A stretch of DNA of 45,139 nt from a virus (IMGVR_UViG_2713897161_000005), one strand, 5' to 3'; positions 2,859 through 40,070 are shown, counted from the stretch's first letter. Notes: generated by a model not told the origin, from the letters alone. Program-made: numbers and translations.

Positions 2859-3606
2859 NNNNNNNNNNNNNNNNNNNNNNNNNNNNNNNNNNNNNNNNNN
2901 NNNNNNNNNNNNNNNNNNNNNNNNNNNNNNNNNNNNNNNNNNNNNNNNNNNNNNNNNNNNNNNNNNNNNNNNNNNNNNNNNNNNNNNNNNNNNNNNNNNN
3001 NNNNNNNNNNNNNNNNNNNNNNNNNNNNNNNNNNNNNNNNNNNNNNNNNNNNNNNNNNNNNNNNNNNNNNNNNNNNNNNNNNNNNNNNNNNNNNNNNNNN
3101 NNNNNNNNNNNNNNNNNNNNNNNNNNNNNNNNNNNNNNNNNNNNNNNNNNNNNNNNNNNNNNNNNNNNNNNNNNNNNNNNNNNNNNNNNNNNNNNNNNNN
3201 NNNNNNNNNNNNNNNNNNNNNNNNNNNNNNNNNNNNNNNNNNNNNNNNNNNNNNNNNNNNNNNNNNNNNNNNNNNNNNNNNNNNNNNNNNNNNNNNNNNN
3301 NNNNNNNNNNNNNNNNNNNNNNNNNNNNNNNNNNNNNNNNNNNNNNNNNNNNNNNNNNNNNNNNNNNNNNNNNNNNNNNNNNNNNNNNNNNNNNNNNNNN
3401 NNNNNNNNNNNNNNNNNNNNNNNNNNNNNNNNNNNNNNNNNNNNNNNNNNNNNNNNNNNNNNNNNNNNNNNNNNNNNNNNNNNNNNNNNNNNNNNNNNNN
3501 NNNNNNNNNNNNNNNNNNNNNNNNNNNNNNNNNNNNNNNNNNNNNNNNNNNNNNNNNNNNNNNNNNNNNNNNNNNNNNNNNNNNNNNNNNNNNNNNNNNN
3601 NNNNNN
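2859..3606. other. N-run (748 nt, unresolved or masked sequence)
   Basis: Continuous n characters; ORFs crossing it are artefacts. Confidence 0.99.
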
Positions 3607-8409: not shown

Positions 8410-8629
8410 TATCAATGAAAATAAGGTCTCCCTTAAATCCAAGGTAGGAATATCTTACCATCTTATTACCATGCAGACATGGAACGCCCTGCATAATTGG
8501 GACTTCATTAACAGTTAAATCCATGTACATAAAACTCTGTCGCTGAACAAGTTTTATATTACATTGCTGACCAGCCAGACTTACCGAAATGGACTGAGAT
8601 TTGCTGGGAAGAACAGATACTGTAATCAT
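8327..8629 (-). CDS. Phage tail protein (100 aa)
   Basis: ORF in the tail block, coupled to its neighbours. Confidence 0.4.
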   Translation of the reverse strand: MITVSVLPSKSQSISVSLAGQQCNIKLVQRQSFMYMDLTVNEVPIMQGVPCLHGNKMVRYSYLGFKGDLIFIDNDGESDPRWEGLGSRYLLYYIEENELV

Positions 8630-9441
8630 GTACTCGCCTTAACTATATTTTTTGCAATATCTGCCGCTTTTTTTGTTGCGCTGTTTGTGACTTCGAGTAT
8701 TGGTTTGGATACCGTATCAAGAGCACTCTGGAATTCAGTCTTGATTGTGTCGGAGATTTTTCCAGTGATTTCGCCAACAGATGACTTCAGTGATGACCAT
8801 GATTTACTTAGCTCATCGACAGTAGATTCCCTGGCTCCGCCATTGGTTATTTGCGGATCAACTCCTACATCTCCCTGTGACTTATTGTTATCCGTTGGCT
8901 TCTGTTCTGACTGAGATCCAGAGAGAATAACTTCCATTTGCTGAATGACCTCCTGAAAATCAAGATAAACCGTCAGAAGAGTAACCCCTTTTTGAGAGTT
9001 AACTTCGTAATAGTGGTCAACAAGGTCGAAACTCTCCAGAGTTTCCTTTGGCGTTTCAATATCGTATGTTTTTGCAGAGGACAGCATCGTTTTGATTGTG
9101 TTCAGCGTGCTGTTCTGGCTTGTGAATGTGAGATCGAAAATATTCGGGATGTTGCCGGAAAAACCAGTAAGACCATTTACGATGATTGCACATCTTACTC
9201 TGGCGGGTTCTTTAACTTTGTTGATGGACTGGTATTTCCCTTTCTCCACCGGAGCGTTTGTTATTTGCGCCCTTCCGCTTGGCTGTACGGATGCCATACC
9301 ACTGAACTCAAGAGCAACCTCGCCAGTTTCCCTGTCACGAATCACATACTGAGGATGCAGAACGCTGTCGATGATCGAAAGCGGAGAGCCACCACCGATA
9401 GCATTGAATATGTCTGCTGTGTTTAAATCGATTATGTTCAT
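8626..9441 (-). CDS. Phage tail protein (271 aa), first gene after the accessory island
   Basis: ATG at 9441 with GGAGAG upstream; function unassigned. Confidence 0.4.
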   Translation of the reverse strand: MNIIDLNTADIFNAIGGGSPLSIIDSVLHPQYVIRDRETGEVALEFSGMASVQPSGRAQITNAPVEKGKYQSINKVKEPARVRCAIIVNGLTGFSGNIPNIFDLTFTSQNSTLNTIKTMLSSAKTYDIETPKETLESFDLVDHYYEVNSQKGVTLLTVYLDFQEVIQQMEVILSGSQSEQKPTDNNKSQGDVGVDPQITNGGARESTVDELSKSWSSLKSSVGEITGKISDTIKTEFQSALDTVSKPILEVTNSATKKAADIAKNIVKAST

Positions 9442-9450
9442 CTACTCTCC

Positions 9451-9481
9451 ATTAAACAAAAACCCAGCCGAAGCTGGGTTT
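9451..9481 (-). terminator. Intrinsic terminator closing the accessory island
   Basis: Minus-strand RNA forms an 8-bp stem AACCCAGC/GCUGGGUU with UUCG loop, followed by UUUGUUUAAU; lies 11 nt downstream of the ORF ending at 9492. Confidence 0.55.
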
Positions 9482-9491
9482 AGTGAATTGG

Positions 9492-9710
9492 CTAGTTATC
9501 AAAAAGTCCGTACGTTTCTTCTTCAGGAGTAAGGGGAAGAATCTCAATTCTATCTATAGATACCTTTTCAATGTACCCATGAGGTCTACTTAAAATTAAA
9601 GCTCTCTCATGCCACAGAACTCCAAGAATGTGATACCTTCCAGCATCGCCTTTTACCCTGGCTCTTCCTTTGATTCTTGGCGGCATAATGCCATATTTTT
9701 TCTTTGCCAT
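9492..9710 (-). CDS. Hypothetical protein (72 aa, basic N-terminus)
   Basis: ORF MAKKKYGIMPPRIKGRARVKG...; last gene of the island operon before the terminator. Confidence 0.4.
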   Translation of the reverse strand: MAKKKYGIMPPRIKGRARVKGDAGRYHILGVLWHERALILSRPHGYIEKVSIDRIEILPLTPEEETYGLFDN

Positions 9711-10438
9711 TATGCAACATTACTCCCATGAACCAGGTGTTGTAGTGCTTTAACGCCTTCAGAATTGTAGCGGAATGCTTCCACCTGTTTGCTGGAATGC
9801 GCAGATTTATCCAGGAAGAACTTCCCGTACTGCTCAGTTTTGAGGTTGTTTGCGTTAGCAATGCGACCAATCTTGTTTGCCGTTACTCCAAGCTGCTCTG
9901 CGACCTCCCCTGCTGAGTAGTAATGCTCTTCTATTGCCGGAAGAGGTATTGCATTAAAACCAACGAGCGGGTTGATTATACTTGCTGCCGCTGTCTGCTT
10001 TGCCTCCGGCGCAAGATTTGGCATCAGATCGAACAGATTGGTAACAGCTTCAACCGTCATTTTCAATGTTCGCGCTTGACGATACTCAACAAGTCCACTC
10101 GACGATTTACCGCTTTTAATGTGCGCTTCTTGCATCCTTTCAAGTTGGTCTACAAGTGAGCGGCGAACAGCTTTAGATTCACGAGCAGCCACTCGAAGGG
10201 CTTGCTTAATTGACATAACAACTTTTTCAGAAGTTGTCTTGTTTGATTTTTGAACTACGAAAATTTCGTAGTGCTCACCTTCAAGTTCATCCTTAATGCG
10301 TGCAATAAAGTCGTTATTTCGAACTTCTTTTTCCCCGCACTGTCTACGAGCATGATTGACCATCTCTAACAGGTACTGGCTATCAATGGTTTTATCCGTG
10401 ACAACGGATCCGATGTTTGCTACATTCTTAAAAGTCAT
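9710..10438 (-). CDS. Antirepressor-like / phage regulatory protein (KilA-C-type C-terminal region, putative)
   Basis: Start at ATG 10438 (MTFKNVANIGS...) preceded by AAGGAA; C-terminal segment YSAGEVAEQLGVTANKIGRIANANNL resembles antirepressor DNA-binding regions (from memory). Confidence 0.45.
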   Translation of the reverse strand: MTFKNVANIGSVVTDKTIDSQYLLEMVNHARRQCGEKEVRNNDFIARIKDELEGEHYEIFVVQKSNKTTSEKVVMSIKQALRVAARESKAVRRSLVDQLERMQEAHIKSGKSSSGLVEYRQARTLKMTVEAVTNLFDLMPNLAPEAKQTAAASIINPLVGFNAIPLPAIEEHYYSAGEVAEQLGVTANKIGRIANANNLKTEQYGKFFLDKSAHSSKQVEAFRYNSEGVKALQHLVHGSNVA

Positions 10439-10475
10439 TAGGCATTCCTTATGTGGTAGTAAGGGTGTGACATAG

Positions 10476-10504
10476 GCCGCCAGCAGCACACTGGCGGTTT
10501 TTTT
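10476..10504 (+). terminator. GC-rich hairpin plus T7 tract, part of a three-segment alternative-pairing element
   Basis: GCCGCCAG(10476-83)/CTGGCGGT(10491-98) then TTTTTTT (10498-10504); a third copy ACCGCCAG at 10506-13 can pair alternatively. Lies between the two antirepressor-like genes. Confidence 0.4.
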
Positions 10505-10521
10505 CACCGCCAGATGCGTCA

Positions 10522-11445
10522 TTAATACAGATGAACAGAAGGCGGCAATTCTTTATTCTTAAGCCTTATCCATGCGGAAAGATTTGTTGGTCCGTCTGGC
10601 TCATTGATATCAACATCTCGTGTGTGGTTGATTAAAACGTCTCTCGCCGTTCCGATAACATACGAGAACTCATGACCGTAGTCGTAGCATCTGCCGGAAT
10701 AGTTCGATTGAATTTGTTTTAGCGCCGGATACAGTTCGCGGAATAATGCCTGTGAGCGGTTGGCATAATCCCATAGCCATACAAGGCTGTTTGCTTCTTT
10801 TGCAGAAAGCTCGTTGACTTTCCTCTCTTGTTTGCCGATGAACTCTCCTTCAAGCGGAACGCGAGCAGCAAGTGACAGTGCTTCGGTAAACTGCTCCTCA
10901 CTGATTTCTTTGTACGAACATCCAAAATGGGATTTCAGTGACGACCACATGGTGATCATCGCCTTAGCCTGTTTTTCTTTTGGCAGAGACTGACCGCGAC
11001 TCATGACGAGTTGTTTAATGGCTTCCTGCTGTTCAGTGGTAATTTTACCCGGCAACGCCTTTTTAGCTTTGCGTGGATTAACCACATGGCCTTTAGTCCA
11101 GTATTCGTAGAGCACATCGTCACACTCTTCCTGATACTGGATTACCTTGTCGCGGATTTCAGGGCGGACTTTGTTTGGTTGAATACTTGAAAGCCAAGCC
11201 GCAAATTTACGAAAGGCAAGACATGTCATTAACTGTTTACCGCCAGCAGAAGGTATTTCGATTTCCGAAATACCTTTGGCAAACCTTTGTTTTAACTTAA
11301 CAAATTGAGCAGCCCAAACCAGCCCCATGCCTTCAACAACAGGCCTCATAGGAACATAAGGCTCATTGTTAATTCCAACCAAAAACAGATTTGTTCCGTG
11401 GAATGGTACATTGATAGTAGATACCGCTGTTGCTATACTTTTCAT
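10522..11445 (-). CDS. Antirepressor (Ant-like), 307 aa
   Basis: Large ORF directly downstream of an Arc-like gene, as ant follows arc in P22 immI; N-terminal region looks antirepressor-like (from memory). Confidence 0.55.
   Translation of the reverse strand: MKSIATAVSTINVPFHGTNLFLVGINNEPYVPMRPVVEGMGLVWAAQFVKLKQRFAKGISEIEIPSAGGKQLMTCLAFRKFAAWLSSIQPNKVRPEIRDKVIQYQEECDDVLYEYWTKGHVVNPRKAKKALPGKITTEQQEAIKQLVMSRGQSLPKEKQAKAMITMWSSLKSHFGCSYKEISEEQFTEALSLAARVPLEGEFIGKQERKVNELSAKEANSLVWLWDYANRSQALFRELYPALKQIQSNYSGRCYDYGHEFSYVIGTARDVLINHTRDVDINEPDGPTNLSAWIRLKNKELPPSVHLY
11411..11439 (+). promoter_or_regulatory. Near-consensus sigma70 promoter antisense to ant (Psar-like)
   Basis: TTGATA (11411-16), 17-bp spacer, TATACT (11434-39); lies inside the first codons of ant on the opposite strand. 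Confidence 0.5.
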
Positions 11446-11518
11446 GTCAATATTTCCCGATCAGATTTGTTGATATAGAAGCCTCGCCAGTTCCCGCTGT
11501 CGGGGCTTCGTTATTTTT
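11446..11518 (+). ncRNA. Candidate sar-like antisense RNA (~70 nt) covering the ant RBS and arc-ant spacer
   Basis: Predicted start ~11446 from the promoter above; ends at a hairpin (11478-11509, GAAGCCUCG/CGGGGCUUC) followed by GUUAUUUUU. Same layout as P22 sar. Confidence 0.45.
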
Positions 11519-11678
11519 AGAGAGCATTCCGCATTTTCTCCCGGTACTTCAACCACCAAGCAAGTCCCTGAACCAACACTGAGTTTTCTGACATCCCCTC
11601 TTCCTTGGCGATGCGTTTCACCTCCTCCTTAAAACGGTACGGATACCGAAGAGTTGTCTTCACTTCATTCTTTTCCAT
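11517..11678 (-). CDS. arc: Arc-like ribbon-helix-helix repressor (53 aa)
   Basis: Uncalled small ORF with AAGGAG 7 nt upstream of ATG: MEKNEVKTTLRYPYRFKEEVKRIAKEEGMSENSVLVQGL...; matches the Arc pattern LRWPREV...ENGRSVNSEI. Confidence 0.55.
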   Translation of the reverse strand: MEKNEVKTTLRYPYRFKEEVKRIAKEEGMSENSVLVQGLAWWLKYREKMRNAL

Positions 11679-11700
11679 TGATCACTCCTTTTTACGTAAT

Positions 11701-11761
11701 GGCATTATGCCTTGAAAGCAATATGCCATCATTGAATATAAATAGCAATATGCCATCATTG
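11701..11761. promoter_or_regulatory. Divergent promoter/operator region between arc and mnt
   Basis: Two perfect 17-bp direct repeats GCAATATGCCATCATTG (11718-34, 11745-61); palindrome GGCATtATGCC (11701-11); TTGAAA(11712-17)...TATAAA candidate promoter toward mnt. Confidence 0.45.
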
Positions 11762-11780
11762 TTTTTTTTGAGGTGATGTT

Positions 11781-12101
11781 ATGGCTGAAAAACAGGTTAA
11801 AGATTACGAAAAGTTTGTTGTGCGTTTCCCTGACGGGATGAGGGACGCGATTGCGGAGAGAGCCAAACGAAACGGGCGCTCTATGAACTCAGAGATTGTG
11901 CAGATACTGGAAGATGCCTTGAATGCAGAAAATACTCTTGGGGAAATAGCAGACAAAATCAACAGCGTCTCGGTTCCGCTAAATGTTGATGCGCTAGTTC
12001 AACTTCAAGCCCAAGTGATCGCCATGCAAAAAGAAATACAGGAAAAATTCAGAGAGCAGAACGAAAAGTTGAGAGAACTGCTAAACAAAAAACCCACCTG
12101 A
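11781..12101 (+). CDS. mnt: Mnt-like ribbon-helix-helix repressor (106 aa)
   Basis: N-terminus FVVRFPDGMRDAIAERAKRNGRSMNSEIVQILEDAL matches the Mnt/Arc RHH pattern; GAGGTGA RBS; divergent from arc. Confidence 0.6.
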   Translation: MAEKQVKDYEKFVVRFPDGMRDAIAERAKRNGRSMNSEIVQILEDALNAENTLGEIADKINSVSVPLNVDALVQLQAQVIAMQKEIQEKFREQNEKLRELLNKKPT

Positions 12102-12112
12102 CGGTGGGTTTT
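12089..12112. terminator. Bidirectional intrinsic terminator between convergent mnt and the lipoprotein gene
   Basis: 10-bp stem AAAACCCACC/GGTGGGTTTT with 4-nt loop; T-rich on both strands; overlaps the mnt stop codon. Confidence 0.55.
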
Positions 12113-12135
12113 CATTACATATCAATTAATACCTA

Positions 12136-12798
12136 TTATCTTCTGATCGCTTTACGCCAATCCCCGGATAATCTAGATATATCCCAACACGACTGAACAA
12201 CTTCAGTAAAATACTCTCTATCCATTGGCGCGATTCCTGGCCAATCTTTCATTCGATTTACTAACGCATCTTTTGGTATGCCCTTCTTTTGATTCAAGGA
12301 GGTTTGTTCGCAAATCGCCCTTACCGCAGCATCATATTCAGCCTGAGCATAATGATTCACACTAAGAAGCACAGTGTATGCTGTTGAAAGTGAATTCATG
12401 GAAGATGAGAGTTCTTTCTTCCTCCGACACTCTTTATCAGCAAGGCATTTCTCTTCAGCTAGTTTTTTTTCCGCTCTCTTCTTGTTATTGAAGGCGTTAA
12501 TCCCAGAATCATAAGCGTTAGCCCATACATTGTAATAACACTCTCCATCCCAGCCGCATTGCGTGGTATCTGGAGCGACAAGAATCATCCCTGTTTTTTT
12601 TAGATAATCATTTTTAAGCCTATTAACAGTCCATGACTCTCCGCTTTTTGCTACATACTCTTTATCACCGAATTCGCTTTGCTGTTGCTGAGTGGTTGGT
12701 GGGGTTATCGAACACCCGTACAATAAAGAAGCAGAAAGAATCAAGAGAAAGTGTGATTTTATTTTTCTTACACATTCACCACGATTAATTAATGCCAT
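12136..12798 (-). CDS. Putative lipoprotein / secreted Cys-rich protein (220 aa), accessory gene
   Basis: Signal-peptide-like N-terminus with lipobox-like LLYGC; AGGAG RBS; AT-rich by eye; sits beside mnt where P22 carries sieA. Confidence 0.5.
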   Translation of the reverse strand: MALINRGECVRKIKSHFLLILSASLLYGCSITPPTTQQQQSEFGDKEYVAKSGESWTVNRLKNDYLKKTGMILVAPDTTQCGWDGECYYNVWANAYDSGINAFNNKKRAEKKLAEEKCLADKECRRKKELSSSMNSLSTAYTVLLSVNHYAQAEYDAAVRAICEQTSLNQKKGIPKDALVNRMKDWPGIAPMDREYFTEVVQSCWDISRLSGDWRKAIRR

Positions 12799-12996
12799 AC
12801 GGCGACTCCTGTCAATTTAGCATGATATACAACGGATTACCTTTGAGTTGTTCATCATATTAACGAACACAATAACTTCAGGTAAACACCTAATCCTCCC
12901 TCATCATCATGCATGAAGAAAAAACACGTATTTATCATACATGTAGCATTAATGACTGTTACCTCCAATTGGTTGGCAAAAATCATCACTGACAGG

Positions 12997-13245
12997 CTAT
13001 GATTTGAATAAGTGCTCATGCCGTGCTGATAGCTCTACTAGCAACTTCATCGCTTCTACCGCGTCTGCCGAGGTTGATTTAGGTGACGCAGCAATGGACC
13101 TGAGTGTGCTCTCTAAACTACACAGGGATAGAGAATATGCCAAATTTAGCTTTATCACGGCGGCTAAGTCTGTTTCATCATGGTTTACGAGTTTGTCTGC
13201 TTCTTCTGGGGTATACCCACTCGCAACCAATCGTGCGTGCATCAT
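12997..13245 (-). CDS. Hypothetical protein (82 aa)
   Basis: Minus-strand ORF preferred over the overlapping plus-strand ORF 13004-13255 because of composition and local gene polarity. Confidence 0.3.
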   Translation of the reverse strand: MMHARLVASGYTPEEADKLVNHDETDLAAVIKLNLAYSLSLCSLESTLRSIAASPKSTSADAVEAMKLLVELSARHEHLFKS

Positions 13246-13329
13246 CTCTTTGTAAGAGTGTTCAATTGCTTTTATGATAATAACCTATTGGTAATAATTC
13301 CAGGATTAAAAAACTCTTGATAGTAGTAA

Positions 13330-13569
13330 TTAATTTCCATCAAGAGCAGCAAGCAGCGAAGTGCGCAACTTTTCTTGAGTCATTTTCAACTCTCCGCTCT
13401 TTGCTTGCCTGCGAAGATCATCGACCACCATTTTGGTGAATTCTGTAGGGGTAATCTCACTCTCGATAGAGACCTCTCTCCCAAGAAGCAATGATATCCC
13501 ACCCAAAATCAGGCTAAAGGCATTACCAATATTTTTTAACGATGGAGTGTAAACGATGGAAAGTTTCAT
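13330..13569 (-). CDS. Hypothetical protein (79 aa) immediately downstream of the tape measure gene
   Basis: ORF with a hydrophobic central segment; weak RBS. Confidence 0.3.
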   Translation of the reverse strand: MKLSIVYTPSLKNIGNAFSLILGGISLLLGREVSIESEITPTEFTKMVVDDLRRQAKSGELKMTQEKLRTSLLAALDGN

Positions 13570-13624
13570 TTTTACCGTCCGACTTCAGTTAACGGATACA
13601 AGCACAGGAAACGTTACAAGGTGA

Positions 13625-15439
13625 CTAAGGCATTGCACTAGAAAATGCCGCGTTTGTTGACACCCGGCTAACTTGCTGATTGACACTTCTGGTAAGAGCA
13701 TCAACTGTTGTCGGGTTACTGTTAACAACAACCGTGCCAATAGTTGTACTGCTGCTACGACTGTTGTCAATTTTTGATGTTGTCTGGCTTGGTGTTGAAG
13801 CGATGCGTTGCTGCTGCTGATAGTAAGCCAGCGTCTCGTTTTCTTTTGCATTAAGAGCGGCGCGAATCTTTGGCACATATTCTCGCGTCTCTTTCGGTAA
13901 GGTGTTCCAGTATTTGGATGATGGTGAATCAAACCCGGTACTGGATATGTATTTTAACTTTTTGTCTACATTGCCCATCCCCCAGTTGTAAGCCATCAGC
14001 GCATGGTTAACATTGCCTTTATAGTGCTTTAGCAAATCCCTCATGAACCTTTCAGCAGCAGCGCGAGATTTTACCTCATCAAGACGCTCATCAATCCCAT
14101 CACCGACCTTTAACCCGTACGCTATGGCAGTATCCTTCATGAACTGATACGGACCAACAGCACCTTTCGGGCTGTAAAGTTTTTTACCACCACTCGATTC
14201 CACCTCACGAATGGCATCAAGAAGAGAATCCATGCTTACAGGCTTTACTCCGTCAGGGAGAGGGATATCTGGCTGAATGTTATTGCCATAAATCTCATCT
14301 CCCCTACGCCCAAAATCGGTGTCAAACCCCATGCTGCGCATGGTATCTCCAAGTTCACGCTTAGAGTAATCAAACGATCCTTTAGCTGCACCCTCAATGT
14401 TTTCCCTGTCATTGTAGAGGTACAAACCATATGCTATTAACCCAGCCAACCATGGAGGAAGGGCACCGCCTGTAAGTTTGCTTCCTACATATGCTGCTGC
14501 CAATAGCTTCAGAGCCTCTTCCGCGCCACCAACTGCCTTTGTGAATTGCTTCGTCATATTCCCGGCGTCATTGAAAAAGCCAATGATGTCGCCATGATGT
14601 TTCTCAATCCAGGAACCAAAAGCCTTCATCCCGTCAATAACGTCTGGAGCGAATGCCATGGCTAAATTTTGCTTTAATCGGGAAAACTCTGAATCAAGTT
14701 GACCAAGAGTGGCGGCAACCTTCTCCTGCTCTTTTACCTGCTGTGCGCTAATACGGGATTTCTTTGTTTCTGAATCGACAAGCTGCTTAAGTTCCCCTGA
14801 TTTTATTTTAGCGGCATCTGTCGGATCGAACCCTGCGGCCGCCATCACCTGCATCAGGTTTTCTTGAGAATGAGTCTTGCCATAGCGAGAAAACTCAGCA
14901 AGAGCCTTGTTTGGGTCACCGAGCTTATTGATATCTAATCCGGTACGAGCGCCAAGAACCAGCAAATTTTGGGCAGCGCCAGTAAGCCCCCCCATAACAG
15001 TTGGATCGGCAATATTTGCCAAAGCCATTCTGGCATTCCCAGAAGATGAAATGAACGAGTCACCGTTAAGACCAGCCTGGCGAAATCCCCGCTGAACACC
15101 AAACATCTTATTAACATCAGAACCGAAAAACTTGGCCTGTTGACTGGCTCTCACGATTTCGTTGGCAGTAGATGTAAAAAGTTGCTTGATTCCATACAAC
15201 CCGGCGCCAATTCCCAAAAATCCAGCGGCTGCGGTTGTCACGTTGCGGAAAGCTGAAACAGCGGTTTTACCGAACCTCTCCGTTTCCTGCCGCTGTTTTT
15301 CAAGTTCCTTTAGCCTTTCCTTCTCAGCCCTGGAAAGATCTTTGTTTAATTTACTAACTTCATCTTTTACTTTCCGTTTTCCATTCAGGAATTCATCGGC
15401 CTTAATTGTGACCTTGTAGGCCAACTCATTGATAATCAT
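13625..15439 (-). CDS. Tail tape measure protein with lytic transglycosylase-like region
   Basis: 604 aa, N-terminal coiled-coil-like region; C-proximal EVESSGGKK...GPYQFMKDTA...AYNWGMG resembles SLT catalytic motifs (ES...AYNxG). Confidence 0.7.
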   Translation of the reverse strand: MIINELAYKVTIKADEFLNGKRKVKDEVSKLNKDLSRAEKERLKELEKQRQETERFGKTAVSAFRNVTTAAAGFLGIGAGLYGIKQLFTSTANEIVRASQQAKFFGSDVNKMFGVQRGFRQAGLNGDSFISSSGNARMALANIADPTVMGGLTGAAQNLLVLGARTGLDINKLGDPNKALAEFSRYGKTHSQENLMQVMAAAGFDPTDAAKIKSGELKQLVDSETKKSRISAQQVKEQEKVAATLGQLDSEFSRLKQNLAMAFAPDVIDGMKAFGSWIEKHHGDIIGFFNDAGNMTKQFTKAVGGAEEALKLLAAAYVGSKLTGGALPPWLAGLIAYGLYLYNDRENIEGAAKGSFDYSKRELGDTMRSMGFDTDFGRRGDEIYGNNIQPDIPLPDGVKPVSMDSLLDAIREVESSGGKKLYSPKGAVGPYQFMKDTAIAYGLKVGDGIDERLDEVKSRAAAERFMRDLLKHYKGNVNHALMAYNWGMGNVDKKLKYISSTGFDSPSSKYWNTLPKETREYVPKIRAALNAKENETLAYYQQQQRIASTPSQTTSKIDNSRSSSTTIGTVVVNSNPTTVDALTRSVNQQVSRVSTNAAFSSAMP

Positions 15440-18050: not shown

Positions 18051-18533
18051 ATGTGTAAATTCAATGATTTATTTGCGTATTGCAAACGAACCGGTGTTTT
18101 GACATACAAGAAAAAATGCGGAATAAAAATGCCAGGGCAAATTGCTGGGTCTGTCAACAAAAATAACTACATAAATCTTGGCATTGAAAAGAAAAGATAC
18201 TATGCCCACAGGATAATATGGGAAATGCATAATGGAACCATTCCTGATGGCTATCAGGTAGACCACATAAATGGCATAAGGTCTGATAATCGAATCGAGA
18301 ATCTCAGAATAGTGAAAAACAGCGAGAACTCGAAGAACCAGAAGCGAAAATCTACCAACAAATCTGGTATGACTGGCGTTTCATGGGATACGCAAACCCA
18401 GAGATGGAGAGCGCATATAACTGTTAATGGAAAGATGATATCTCTTGGAAGATATATACATAAGCTTGATGCATTAACAGCCAGAAAAAATGCCGAGATT
18501 AAATACAATTTTCACGAAAATCACGGGCGTTAA
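18051..18533 (+). CDS. HNH endonuclease with AP2-like DNA-binding region (homing-endonuclease type)
   Basis: HNH motif YYAHRIIWEMHNGTIPDGYQVDHINGIRSDNRIENLRIV; AP2-like GVSWDTQTQRWRAHITVNGKMISLGRY. Opposite strand to the flanking structural genes; AT-rich by eye. Confidence 0.75.
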   Translation: MCKFNDLFAYCKRTGVLTYKKKCGIKMPGQIAGSVNKNNYINLGIEKKRYYAHRIIWEMHNGTIPDGYQVDHINGIRSDNRIENLRIVKNSENSKNQKRKSTNKSGMTGVSWDTQTQRWRAHITVNGKMISLGRYIHKLDALTARKNAEIKYNFHENHGR

Positions 18534-28678: not shown

Positions 28679-29560
28679 NNNNNNNNNNNNNNNNNNNNNN
28701 NNNNNNNNNNNNNNNNNNNNNNNNNNNNNNNNNNNNNNNNNNNNNNNNNNNNNNNNNNNNNNNNNNNNNNNNNNNNNNNNNNNNNNNNNNNNNNNNNNNN
28801 NNNNNNNNNNNNNNNNNNNNNNNNNNNNNNNNNNNNNNNNNNNNNNNNNNNNNNNNNNNNNNNNNNNNNNNNNNNNNNNNNNNNNNNNNNNNNNNNNNNN
28901 NNNNNNNNNNNNNNNNNNNNNNNNNNNNNNNNNNNNNNNNNNNNNNNNNNNNNNNNNNNNNNNNNNNNNNNNNNNNNNNNNNNNNNNNNNNNNNNNNNNN
29001 NNNNNNNNNNNNNNNNNNNNNNNNNNNNNNNNNNNNNNNNNNNNNNNNNNNNNNNNNNNNNNNNNNNNNNNNNNNNNNNNNNNNNNNNNNNNNNNNNNNN
29101 NNNNNNNNNNNNNNNNNNNNNNNNNNNNNNNNNNNNNNNNNNNNNNNNNNNNNNNNNNNNNNNNNNNNNNNNNNNNNNNNNNNNNNNNNNNNNNNNNNNN
29201 NNNNNNNNNNNNNNNNNNNNNNNNNNNNNNNNNNNNNNNNNNNNNNNNNNNNNNNNNNNNNNNNNNNNNNNNNNNNNNNNNNNNNNNNNNNNNNNNNNNN
29301 NNNNNNNNNNNNNNNNNNNNNNNNNNNNNNNNNNNNNNNNNNNNNNNNNNNNNNNNNNNNNNNNNNNNNNNNNNNNNNNNNNNNNNNNNNNNNNNNNNNN
29401 NNNNNNNNNNNNNNNNNNNNNNNNNNNNNNNNNNNNNNNNNNNNNNNNNNNNNNNNNNNNNNNNNNNNNNNNNNNNNNNNNNNNNNNNNNNNNNNNNNNN
29501 NNNNNNNNNNNNNNNNNNNNNNNNNNNNNNNNNNNNNNNNNNNNNNNNNNNNNNNNNNNN
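28679..29560. other. N-run (882 nt, unresolved or masked) between the lysis cassette and packaging genes
   Basis: Continuous n characters; ORFs crossing it are artefacts. Confidence 0.99.
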
Positions 29561-31177: not shown

Positions 31178-31801
31178 CTAACGTGTGACCGCATTCAAAA
31201 TGTTGTCTGCGATTGACTCTTCTTTGTGGCATTGCACCACCAGAGCGTCATACAGTGGCTTAACAGTGCGTGACCAGGTGGGTTGGGTAAGGTTTGGGAT
31301 TAGCATCGTTACAGCGCGATAAGCAGCGCTTGCTGGCATTCTTGAATAGCCGGCGCCTTTGCATCTTCCGCACTCTTTCTCAACAACTCTCCCCCACAGC
31401 TCTGTTTTTGCTATATCAACCGCACGACCTGTACCGTGGCAATCTCTGCATCTTGCGCCCGGCGTCGCGGCACTACGGCAATAATCCGCATAAGCGAATG
31501 TTGCGAGCACTTGCAGTACCTTTGCCTTAGTATTTCCTTCGAGCTTTGCCACACCACGGTATTTCCCCGATACCTTGTGTGCAAATTGCATCAGATAGTT
31601 GATAGCCTTTTGTTTGTCGTTCTGGCTGAGTTCGTGCTTACCACAGAATGCAGCCATGCCGAATCCGGCTTGTGATTGCGCCATCCCCATAGCAGCCATC
31701 ACATCAGTACCGGAAAGAGAGTCAGAAGCCGTAGCCCGTGGTGAGTCGCTCATCATCGGGCTTTTTGGCGAATGAAATTTAGCTACGCTTTCGAGTCTCA
31801 T
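31178..31801 (-). CDS. Q: Late gene antiterminator Q (lambda-type)
   Basis: 207-aa translation (MRLESVAKFHSPKSPMMSDSPRATASD...CGRCKGAGYSR...) is essentially lambda Q by my recollection. Confidence 0.85.
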   Translation of the reverse strand: MRLESVAKFHSPKSPMMSDSPRATASDSLSGTDVMAAMGMAQSQAGFGMAAFCGKHELSQNDKQKAINYLMQFAHKVSGKYRGVAKLEGNTKAKVLQVLATFAYADYCRSAATPGARCRDCHGTGRAVDIAKTELWGRVVEKECGRCKGAGYSRMPASAAYRAVTMLIPNLTQPTWSRTVKPLYDALVVQCHKEESIADNILNAVTR

Positions 31802-34080: not shown

Positions 34081-34720
34081 NNNNNNNNNNNNNNNNNNNN
34101 NNNNNNNNNNNNNNNNNNNNNNNNNNNNNNNNNNNNNNNNNNNNNNNNNNNNNNNNNNNNNNNNNNNNNNNNNNNNNNNNNNNNNNNNNNNNNNNNNNNN
34201 NNNNNNNNNNNNNNNNNNNNNNNNNNNNNNNNNNNNNNNNNNNNNNNNNNNNNNNNNNNNNNNNNNNNNNNNNNNNNNNNNNNNNNNNNNNNNNNNNNNN
34301 NNNNNNNNNNNNNNNNNNNNNNNNNNNNNNNNNNNNNNNNNNNNNNNNNNNNNNNNNNNNNNNNNNNNNNNNNNNNNNNNNNNNNNNNNNNNNNNNNNNN
34401 NNNNNNNNNNNNNNNNNNNNNNNNNNNNNNNNNNNNNNNNNNNNNNNNNNNNNNNNNNNNNNNNNNNNNNNNNNNNNNNNNNNNNNNNNNNNNNNNNNNN
34501 NNNNNNNNNNNNNNNNNNNNNNNNNNNNNNNNNNNNNNNNNNNNNNNNNNNNNNNNNNNNNNNNNNNNNNNNNNNNNNNNNNNNNNNNNNNNNNNNNNNN
34601 NNNNNNNNNNNNNNNNNNNNNNNNNNNNNNNNNNNNNNNNNNNNNNNNNNNNNNNNNNNNNNNNNNNNNNNNNNNNNNNNNNNNNNNNNNNNNNNNNNNN
34701 NNNNNNNNNNNNNNNNNNNN
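34081..34720. other. N-run (640 nt, unresolved or masked) inside the nin region
   Basis: Continuous n characters. Confidence 0.99.
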
Positions 34721-39153: not shown

Positions 39154-39339
39154 TTATGCCGCTTTGCGGTAAGCGCTTTCTTGATACTTCAGGGCGCCAG
39201 CTGTAACGACTTCCAGTCGATAGGCGTCTTTCTCTGGGATGACTTCCTTCCACTGAGAGACTGCTGCGTCGCTAATGCCTAACGCTTTAGCTACAGCACG
39301 CTGGGTTCCGAAGTGGTCGATAACATCTTTCTTGTACAT
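39154..39339 (-). CDS. cro: Cro-like repressor (HTH)
   Basis: 61 aa; HTH-like GTQRAVAKALGISDAAVSQW; divergent from cI. Confidence 0.7.
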   Translation of the reverse strand: MYKKDVIDHFGTQRAVAKALGISDAAVSQWKEVIPEKDAYRLEVVTAGALKYQESAYRKAA

Positions 39340-39363
39340 AGACTCGCTCCGAAATTAAAGAAC

Positions 39364-39419
39364 ACTTAAATTATCCACTAAAGGAATCTTAAGTCAAGTT
39401 TATTTAAGATGTCTTAACT
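39364..39419. promoter_or_regulatory. OR/PR/PRM region between cro and cI
   Basis: TTAA-centred operator-like motifs (ACTTAAAT 39364-71, TCTTAAGT 39387-94, ATTTAAGA 39402-09, TCTTAACT 39412-19); PR candidate on minus strand TTGACT (39392-97), 16 bp, GATAAT (39370-75). Confidence 0.5.
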
Positions 39420-40070
39420 ATGAAAACTCAATTGATGGGAGAGCGCATTCGCGCTCGGAGAAAAGAACTCAAGATCAGACAGGCCGCACTTGGAAAGATG
39501 GTCGGCGTGTCTAATGTTGCCATATCTCAGTGGGAACGCTCTGAGACAGAGCCAAATGGAGAGAATCTTCTCGCCCTGGCTAATGCGTTGAAGTGTTCCC
39601 CTGACTATCTGATGAAAGGAGAGGAAAGTCTTTCAAACATTGCCTATCACAGTAGGCATGATCCAAGAGGGTCATACCCTCTGATTAGCTGGGTGAGCGC
39701 AGGATGCTGGATGGAAGCTGTAGAACCATATCATAAGCGTGCAATAGATAACTGGTACGATACAACCGTAGACTGTTCAGAAGATTCGTTTTGGTTGGAC
39801 GTGAAGGGAGACTCAATGACGGCTCCGGCCGGTCTCAGTATCCCTGAAGGAATGATAATACTCGTAGATCCTGAAGTAGAGCCGCGTAACGGGAAACTGG
39901 TAGTTGCAAAGCTCGAAGGAGAAAACGAGGCAACTTTCAAGAAGTTAGTTATTGATGCAGGCAGGAAGTTTCTAAAACCACTTAACCCACAATATCCGAT
40001 GATCGAGATCAACGGAAACTGCAAAATCATCGGCGTAGTTGTCGATGCAAAACTAGCAAACCTTCCATAA
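39420..40070 (+). CDS. cI: CI-type prophage repressor (HTH + S24 LexA-like peptidase domain)
   Basis: 216 aa; N-terminal HTH (IRQAALGKMVGVSNVAISQWER); C-terminal ...GDSMTAP... serine-peptidase-like region; divergent from cro. Confidence 0.8.
   Translation: MKTQLMGERIRARRKELKIRQAALGKMVGVSNVAISQWERSETEPNGENLLALANALKCSPDYLMKGEESLSNIAYHSRHDPRGSYPLISWVSAGCWMEAVEPYHKRAIDNWYDTTVDCSEDSFWLDVKGDSMTAPAGLSIPEGMIILVDPEVEPRNGKLVVAKLEGENEATFKKLVIDAGRKFLKPLNPQYPMIEINGNCKIIGVVVDAKLANLP

Follow-up and report, generated by a model that had tools for sequence, protein, structure and literature searches.

We have found that a viral DNA window of 45,139 nucleotides (IMGVR_UViG_2713897161_000005; "window" means this whole stretch, to which all coordinates refer) carries an accessory island in the middle of its tail gene block, and that the core of this island is very probably a working homologue of the P22 immI immunity module. 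The island (9451-13569) sits between a tape-measure-like gene and a Dit-like gene, and we interpret it as an 'ant moron' held in a permissive slot of the late operon. P22 immI is a textbook system comprising mnt, the operators Omnt and Oarc, arc, sar and ant. Along the direction of late transcription (- strand), the island consists of a 79-aa open reading frame (ORF), an 82-aa ORF, a lipoprotein gene, a terminator, an mnt-like gene on the opposite strand, a control region, an arc-like gene, a spacer, ant, a second antirepressor-like gene that we call Ant2, a 72-aa gene and a terminator. An initial annotation, made from the sequence alone, had proposed a P22 immI-like module at this place; the ORFs that it listed are all present where it put them, and its proposal is borne out by mnt diverging from arc-ant, by the similarity of Ant to P22 Ant and by an arc-ant spacer that aligns with P22 sar.

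The Ant antirepressor (307 aa; 10522-11445, - strand) contains both domains of the P22 Ant family, each above its Pfam cut-off (P22_AR_N, E = 1.1e-39; P22_AR_C, E = 5.1e-29), and matches PHROG 245 (4.5e-94). It is 56% identical to P22 Ant from end to end, with the final ~100 residues nearly identical. Directly upstream on the same strand, as the first gene of the ant operon, lies a 53-aa ORF (11517-11678, - strand) for an Arc-like repressor of exactly the length of P22 Arc; it matches PHROG 582 (1.6e-10) and shows 38% identity to P22 Arc over 29 aa by BLASTP (E = 3e-5). The divergent gene (11781-12101, + strand) encodes a Mnt-like repressor of 106 aa with an N-terminal ribbon-helix-helix (RHH) domain, identified by Pfam Arc/RHH (1.6e-19), and a putative long C-terminal helix, a possible oligomerisation extension, which a single-sequence AlphaFold2 (AF2) model of low confidence (predicted local distance difference test score 64; too low to settle oligomerisation) places at residues 69-102. 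Its RHH domain is 47% identical to that of P22 Mnt across residues 6-48, and its C-terminal half has no sequence relation to the P22 protein. These family matches agree with the divergent Mnt-like and Arc-like RHH repressors named in the initial annotation. The order and orientation of mnt, arc and ant are as annotated in P22 immI, and arc and ant are separated by 71 bp. All three genes are full length in the window, every ORF of the island is intact, and identical copies of the cassette were found in independent samples.

The arc-ant spacer can be aligned with P22 sar, with the antisense promoter and the hairpin conserved. A sar-like antisense RNA locus, overlooked in the initial annotation, is predicted here on the + strand (11411-11522) from its promoter, Rfam match, P22 alignment, fold and compensatory changes. 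The promoter (TTGATA-17-TATACT, 11411-11439) lies within the first ant codons and agrees with consensus at 10 of 12 positions, with an additional TG. From it, a transcript with complementarity to the start codon and ribosome-binding site (RBS) of ant is predicted to run from ~11447 to 11513-11522 and to end at a terminator (11478-11519) formed by a hairpin followed by a U-run at ~11513-11522. Thus, the putative RNA starts in ant, spans the ant RBS and ends in the arc-ant spacer. Rfam sar (RF00262) is matched over its full length (1-68 of 68; 32.2 bits, E = 0.001). The region folds with a minimum free energy of -26.4 kcal/mol (z = -4.3), and among 14 distinct homologues from related loci, compensatory changes occur in 7 of the 13 terminator-stem pairs.

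Between mnt and arc lies a divergent promoter/operator region of 102 bp (11679-11780), recognized by its repeats and by promoters read from the sequence. The two copies of an exact 18-nt direct repeat, AGCAATATGCCATCATTG, occupy 11717-11734 and 11744-11761; a third, inverted copy at 11699-11713 contains the perfect palindrome GGCATTATGCC. The operator-like motif has six matches against 0.73 expected, and six were reached in none of 100 shuffles; the repeated operator-like sequences of the initial annotation are therefore real features of the region. The candidate Pant promoter (- strand) consists of a -35 element TTGCTA, a 17-nt spacer and TGn-CATATT, and the candidate Pmnt (+ strand) of TTGAAT, a 16-nt spacer and TGc-CATCAT. 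Every plausible -35 or -10 element falls inside a repeat. Neither P22 Omnt (AGGTCCACGGTGGACCT) nor Oarc (ATGATAGAAGCACTCTACTAT) was matched when up to three mismatches were allowed, and aligning the promoter region to that of P22 with MAFFT was uninformative, since only the sar/ant part aligned. Since the P22 operators are absent and the region has repeats of its own, its immI specificity is predicted to differ from that of P22. When loci with swapped alleles were compared, operator variants followed the Mnt and Arc types. This suggests that the repeats nearest the promoter vary with the beta-strand type of Mnt and the palindrome at the start site with the Arc type, the reverse of P22; the assignment is only suggestive because just four to five allele types were compared. 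A further exact copy of the palindrome (ATGGCATTATGCC) lies 2 kb from the control region at 9682-9694, within codons 5-9 of the 72-aa gene, where we estimate that ~0.01 exact matches would be expected per window.

The primary immunity region of the same prophage (immC, 39154-40070) comprises a C2-type repressor gene (39420-40070, + strand; helix-turn-helix (HTH) and S24 peptidase families), the OR operators (39340-39419) and cro (39154-39339, - strand). Identity to P22 is 92% for the repressor (against C2) and 94% for the region of OR1-3 and the cro leader. Because of these identities, the classical target of Ant is present, and the C2-type repressor is presumed to be that target. The initial annotation had suggested that the island adds a second layer of lysogeny control; immC, which it had not seen, strengthens this prediction. 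By sequence, the phage appears to combine P22 immC specificity with a heterologous immI specificity. This immC is essentially that of P22, although the virion module of the window is of a wholly different, contractile-tail type.

The virion genes are all on the - strand and mostly abut or overlap, with a single long break of 4183 bp from the tape-measure stop (13625) to the Dit-like start (9441). The initial annotation had described a block interrupting a tightly coupled structural operon, and this describes the locus well. The upstream anchor, which is not cargo, is a tape-measure-like 'lytic tail protein' (13625-15439, - strand; PHROG 2013, 1e-190) with a C-terminal SLT transglycosylase domain (Pfam SLT, 3.5e-20). 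The downstream anchor, likewise not cargo, is a Dit-like baseplate/tail protein (8626-9441, - strand; PHROG 1830, 4e-74; Pfam Dit_like, 1.2e-4), after which the baseplate genes follow with tight overlaps of 4 nt. The junction was measured in 53 related loci (designated by L numbers below), each carrying both anchor genes, and ranged in length from 285 to 4950 bp. In 14 of the 53 it is empty (285-295 bp), holding only a terminator and a 70-76-aa ORF with two transmembrane segments; this ORF (in L029-L031, L034-L037, L039, L052 and L055) is unrelated to the 79-aa ORF of the window. Homologues of Ant, Mnt, Arc or Ant2 occur in 27 of the 53 loci in mosaic combinations, and six loci (L007, L027, L040, L045-L047) have in the same slot unrelated genes for signal-peptide proteins or lipoproteins of 146-287 aa, encoded on the opposite strand. 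The alignment of related prophages that the initial annotation had recommended thus points to an accessory mosaic insertion at the tape-measure/Dit junction. Both outcomes that would have spoken against its proposal, missing homology or a block conserved as tail genes, were contradicted, the first by the family matches above and the second by the empty-site loci.

Mosaicism extends into the cassette. The tape-measure protein is 96-100% identical in ~17 close relatives, in all of which homology restarts at 13636; all 17 relatives at or above 96% carry some immI-type cassette, in differing combinations. Breakpoints recur at 9480, 9748, 10531, ~10830-10855, 11079, 11430-11457, 12084-12116, 13034-13338, 13564-13583 and 13636. 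Five relatives (L014-L016, L019 and L023) lack 12117-13563, with the lipoprotein gene and the 79-aa and 82-aa ORFs. In L065 (6698-8714), a 288-aa repressor with HTH_3 and Peptidase_S24 domains takes the place of Mnt and Arc and diverges from a 57-aa gene and Ant, suggesting that Ant is there under DNA-damage-cleavable control. Individual parts have unrelated histories. In Edwardsiella phage GF-2, whose tape-measure protein is only 32% identical, tblastn gives 94% identity for Arc, and in a direct comparison of the two Arc sequences 51 of 53 residues match. The Mnt of phi330 and the Ant of a lambdoid Stx siphophage are 97% and 94% identical to those of the window, and there too the cassette lies among tail genes. 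When the tail genes were searched at near identity against cultured phages, no relative appeared, and only the immI part was matched, in Stx and P22-like phages; tblastn recovered GF-2 and Edno5 at 29-32% identity. Among 5426 complete E. coli genomes, ~1480 contain related sequence, and the prophage lineage itself, integrated beside tRNA-Arg(CCT), occurs in ~20. A variable junction, proteins outside virion families (Pfam, PHROG), terminators and promoter-like sites together mark the block as a late-operon moron. Base composition was rejected as a sign of foreign origin. The initial annotation had taken the island to be AT-rich, but its GC content (42.7%) is indistinguishable from that of the adjacent baseplate genes (43.3%; window, 46.6%), and only the lipoprotein segment is lower (40.4%). 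A P22-like phage, Escherichia phage JEP4 (L074, 4005-6665), has in its immI slot a C2-like repressor gene divergent from a 57-aa gene, Rha and homologues of Ant2 and the 72-aa gene, and carries a separate mnt gene beside the tailspike gene.

A mechanism can be proposed by homology to the established P22 system (Susskind, Botstein, Youderian, Sauer, McClure), as summarised in PMC2629481. The slot is bounded on one side by the tape-measure gene and on the other by a conserved terminator within the operon, ahead of the Dit-like gene. In a lysogen, Mnt made from its own leftward-facing promoter would bind the repeated operators and hold the arc-ant promoter shut. Upon infection by a phage that lacks cognate Mnt, or upon loss of Mnt, this promoter would fire, and Arc, made first, would close it again. 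The sar RNA, initiated in the first ant codons, would pair with the ant RBS and restrict translation of Ant. Any Ant produced would bind and inactivate the C2-type repressor of the prophage, and probably other lambdoid repressors, leading to lytic growth or cross-induction. Expression of the baseplate genes would require Q-antiterminated late transcription to pass through the whole cassette, terminators included, just as late transcription of P22 passes through immI to gene 9. Ant2 and the 72-aa protein would be co-transcribed passengers of DNA-binding type.

Several observations weigh against a core that works in this way. The Pant and Pmnt candidates were read by eye and are weak (8 of 12 consensus positions), under the scanner threshold and of uncertain position, and the assignment of individual repeats to Mnt or Arc is tentative. 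The Pfam Arc match of the Arc-like protein (E = 0.0038, 17.5 bits) is below the cut-off of 20.4 bits. The sar-like RNA does not reach the RF00262 gathering score of 43 bits; it is predicted to be a divergent homologue that lies outside membership at the curated threshold. Ant alleles of sister prophages range from 44 to 100% identity, and target specificity can therefore not be assumed from P22. Finally, mnt expression was undetectable in lysogens of Kapi1, a P22-like E. coli phage (PMC12922286), so the rules of P22 may not carry over unchanged.

The main target of Ant might be not its own repressor but, in trans, other lambdoid phages, resident or incoming; we consider this possible but unlikely as the principal role. 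P22 Ant inactivates heterologous lambdoid repressors, and in work attributed to Lemire et al. in 2011, Gifsy prophages are reportedly coordinated by trans-acting antirepressors. Mnt and Ant genes nearly identical to these are found in Stx prophages, frequent co-residents in E. coli, and related sequence is present in ~1480 of 5426 complete E. coli genomes. By analogy with trans-acting antirepressors, cross-talk with other prophages is plausible. Trans action is, however, compatible with a working immI module and does not exclude it, and the presence of a cognate P22-type C2 repressor in the same prophage makes action in cis the simplest expectation.

It is improbable that the cassette is a relic, intact in sequence but unwired from the lysis-lysogeny decision and kept since the slot tolerates cargo. 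Some sister prophages have a broken ant (in L001, RefSeq annotates it as a pseudogene split in two), Ant alleles are freely swapped among sister loci, degraded ant genes are known in P22-like phages (PMC2629481), and the undetectable mnt expression in Kapi1 lysogens (PMC12922286) would also fit. Against decay stand the full length of each component in the window, including the 53-aa Arc, the exactness of the 18-nt operator repeats, the compensatory changes that maintain the sar stem, and the identical copies across several independent samples.

A toxin-antitoxin or ParG-type partition module, with the RHH pair having no part in ant repression, is effectively refuted. Database labels had favoured it, in that PHROG and RefSeq attach names including 'partition protein ATPase' to the RHH genes and one match is to a FitA-like RHH protein, but P22 mnt itself bears the same labels, the synteny with arc-sar-ant is exact and no toxin or ParA gene is present among the ORFs of 9451-13569. 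PADLOC, run on the cargo proteins that had no family assignment (a set that does not include the two RHH proteins), returned nothing for such a module and no defence-system match. That the block is conserved tail-assembly equipment of the lineage can already be dismissed: the distant GF-2 and Edno5 do have mnt-arc-ant at the same junction and all 17 close relatives carry some version, but 14 relatives have merely 285-295 bp there and others unrelated secreted-protein genes, similarity to unrelated phages is far higher for the cassette parts than for the flanking tail genes, and no island protein matches a virion family.

The immI core in its late-operon slot is accompanied by genes of less certain function. 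Ant2 (242 aa; 9710-10438, - strand) is a predicted KilA-like DNA-binding protein that matches PHROG 1726 'anti-repressor' (2e-99) and no Pfam family; it possibly has a KilA-N/APSES-like N-terminal domain and a C-terminal winged helix of the MerR/Xis type. Its start at 10438, chosen in the initial annotation, suits the family better than the longest-ORF start at 10522. The annotation had counted two antirepressor-like genes, which is right for Ant with both P22_AR domains; the second is only a predicted KilA-like DNA-binding protein. The start codon of the 72-aa gene (9492-9710, - strand; PHROG 4977, 1.1e-51), the last of the ant operon, overlaps the stop codon of Ant2. The lipoprotein gene (220 aa; 12136-12798, - strand) was identified by direct reading of its lipobox, L-L-Y-G-C, and matches PHROG 26209 (6.5e-30). 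As a separate moron, the gene comes with a ribosome-binding site (AGGAG), a candidate promoter (12962-12934) and a terminator of its own. The protein is a near-orphan: a search of 5.8 billion proteins gave only four matching clusters, each at 50% identity or more, and it has been seen solely in this prophage lineage and always at this site. Its position resembles that of P22 sieA, and we speculate that it may act at the cell surface or in exclusion; this is a guess. A search for sequences of solved structure gave nothing usable for Ant, Ant2 or the lipoprotein, and seven of the eight island proteins had no match in NCBIfam.

The small ORFs proposed in the initial annotation alongside the lipoprotein are present, but one of them is a doubtful gene. 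The 79-aa ORF (13330-13569, - strand) has a hydrophobic N-terminal segment, is recognized by its position and conservation, and has no Pfam, PHROG or NCBIfam match. It is 94-99% conserved in L001, L017, L020, L063, L065 and L067, is missing from L014-L016, L019 and L023, and represents either a moron gene or the counterpart, by position, of the small membrane ORF found after the tape-measure gene of relatives. The doubtful 82-aa ORF (12997-13245, - strand) has no family match in Pfam, PHROG or NCBIfam, was not called by gene callers in the identical contigs L064 and L066, and is replaced in relatives by a different 100-aa gene.

Terminators border these units. A bidirectional intrinsic terminator at the lipoprotein/mnt border (12089-12113), identified by folding and by U-runs on both strands, has predicted energies of -15.1 kcal/mol on the + strand (z = -4.8) and -17.1 kcal/mol on the - strand (z = -4.5). 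It doubles as a mosaic breakpoint, with breaks at 12084-12116 in many relatives. A strong intrinsic terminator (9460-9481, - strand; hairpin and U-run, -14.6 kcal/mol) lies 19 bp upstream of the Dit-like gene. The initial annotation had credited the block with terminators of its own. This is true of the one at ~12089-12113 and of the sar terminator, both within the block, but the one at 9460-9481 belongs to the phage backbone and forms the distal edge of the cargo slot. Of 27 relatives inspected, ~23 have a GC hairpin and T-run that precede the Dit start by 10-20 bp, the Dit-proximal terminator is kept in all inspected empty-site loci and in GF-2 and Edno5, and homology with all relatives restarts at 9479-9480. 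The backbone operon thus already has a terminator before the Dit-like gene, and cargo gathers just upstream of it. The tail operon thus has a built-in stop at mid-length that is kept with or without cargo, for which setting an expression ratio and serving as a cargo slot are candidate roles.

The remainder of the window is a prophage of lambdoid type adjoining tRNA-Arg(CCT) (1009-1083), which is likely the attachment site, with a P4-type tyrosine integrase (1209-2402). In E. coli IGC_RcoliRes_1.1, a sister prophage lies beside bioA-ybhB instead, and the integration module has therefore been swapped. The early region is lambda/P22-like, with an N-like antiterminator, the CI/C2-type repressor (HTH and S24), Cro, CII, an O-like initiator, a primase-helicase, RusA and a Q-like antiterminator. 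The last of these (31178-31801, - strand; PHROG 127, 8.9e-83) would be needed for late transcription past the island terminators. Besides the tape-measure-like protein with its SLT domain and the Dit-like protein, the contractile-tail genes include an E217-like sheath and tube, a Pam3 gp18-like plug and baseplate J. An HNH_3 homing-endonuclease gene (18051-18533, + strand; GC 37.5%) lies between the sheath and tail-terminator genes on the opposite strand; it is present in L064 and L069, absent in L063, L065, L067, L068 and L070, and was flagged by PADLOC, lying outside the island but within the window. Masked runs of N occur at 2859-3606, 28679-29560 and 34081-34720, in the tail-fibre region, at the lysis/terminase border and in the early region, respectively, and ORFs across them are artefacts.

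Beyond the immI core itself, we offer a tentative extension in which we place little confidence. The junction may be a dedicated cargo slot of a lambdoid myovirus lineage that trades whole immunity cassettes with podoviruses and siphoviruses, the operator wiring may be reversed relative to P22, and the remote palindrome could allow looping or serve as a second control point. If this is true, sister loci with a self-cleaving S24 repressor instead of Mnt and Arc would couple Ant directly to DNA damage.

Compared with P22 immI, the locus has the same gene set, order and orientation. Ant (56%), the Mnt RHH domain (47%), an Arc of equal length (38% over 29 aa) and the sar promoter and hairpin are all homologous, and both modules lie inside a late operon antiterminated by Q/gp23, just upstream of a tail gene, with the C2 partner 92% identical. 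The differences are that the operators of the window are unrelated, with three copies of a GGCAT-type motif against one Oarc and one Omnt in P22, that the C-terminal half of Mnt is unrelated, that Ant2 and the 72-aa gene are added after ant, and that the virion module is of contractile-tail type, whereas P22 is a podovirus. In P22-like phages, Villafane et al. (2008) defined a hypervariable block of the late operon as the 'ant moron' (PMC2629481). As in our locus, this is a non-morphogenetic block with genetic flux far above that of its flanks, and it often, but not always, contains ant, arc and mnt with exclusion or uncharacterised genes (PMC2629481). Those phages are podoviruses, in which the block is flanked by gene 16, for an ejection protein, and the tailspike gene, whereas in the window its neighbours are the tape-measure and Dit-like genes of a myovirus-type tail cluster. 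The locus is therefore the myovirus counterpart of the P22-like 'ant moron'.

Ant, Mnt and Arc have also been noted in the myophage Edno5 by Katharios et al. (2019) (PMC6372524). In the Edwardsiella myophages GF-2 and Edno5 (Gofduovirus), the same junction carries, after the lytic tail protein gene, a small ORF, mnt divergent to arc-ant, and a terminator before the Dit-like gene, and the GF-2 Arc is nearly that of the window. Their structural proteins are only ~30% identical to those of the window, they have other Ant types, and they are without the lipoprotein, Ant2 and 72-aa genes. The cassettes of Stx siphophages such as phi330, 2851, YYZ-2008 and 1717 show ~92% nucleotide identity over ant and mnt and also lie among tail genes; they differ in the Arc allele, in the downstream operator element and in having a lambda-like siphovirus tail module. 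An immI module within a virion-gene operon is thus not unusual, being found in P22, P22-like phages, lambdoid Stx siphophages and GF-2/Edno5; with the textbook P22 module recurring at the same junction in GF-2 and Edno5, the locus is a known kind of module in a known place and adds no new principle. The locus does show that the two-part design of P22, immC and immI, is carried whole by an uncultured lineage of contractile-tail E. coli prophages. A prophage that joins a P22-type C2 with a heterologous immI could induce, or be induced by, co-resident lambdoid prophages, and the same cassette parts circulate among temperate enterobacterial phages of podovirus, siphovirus and myovirus type, Stx phages among them.

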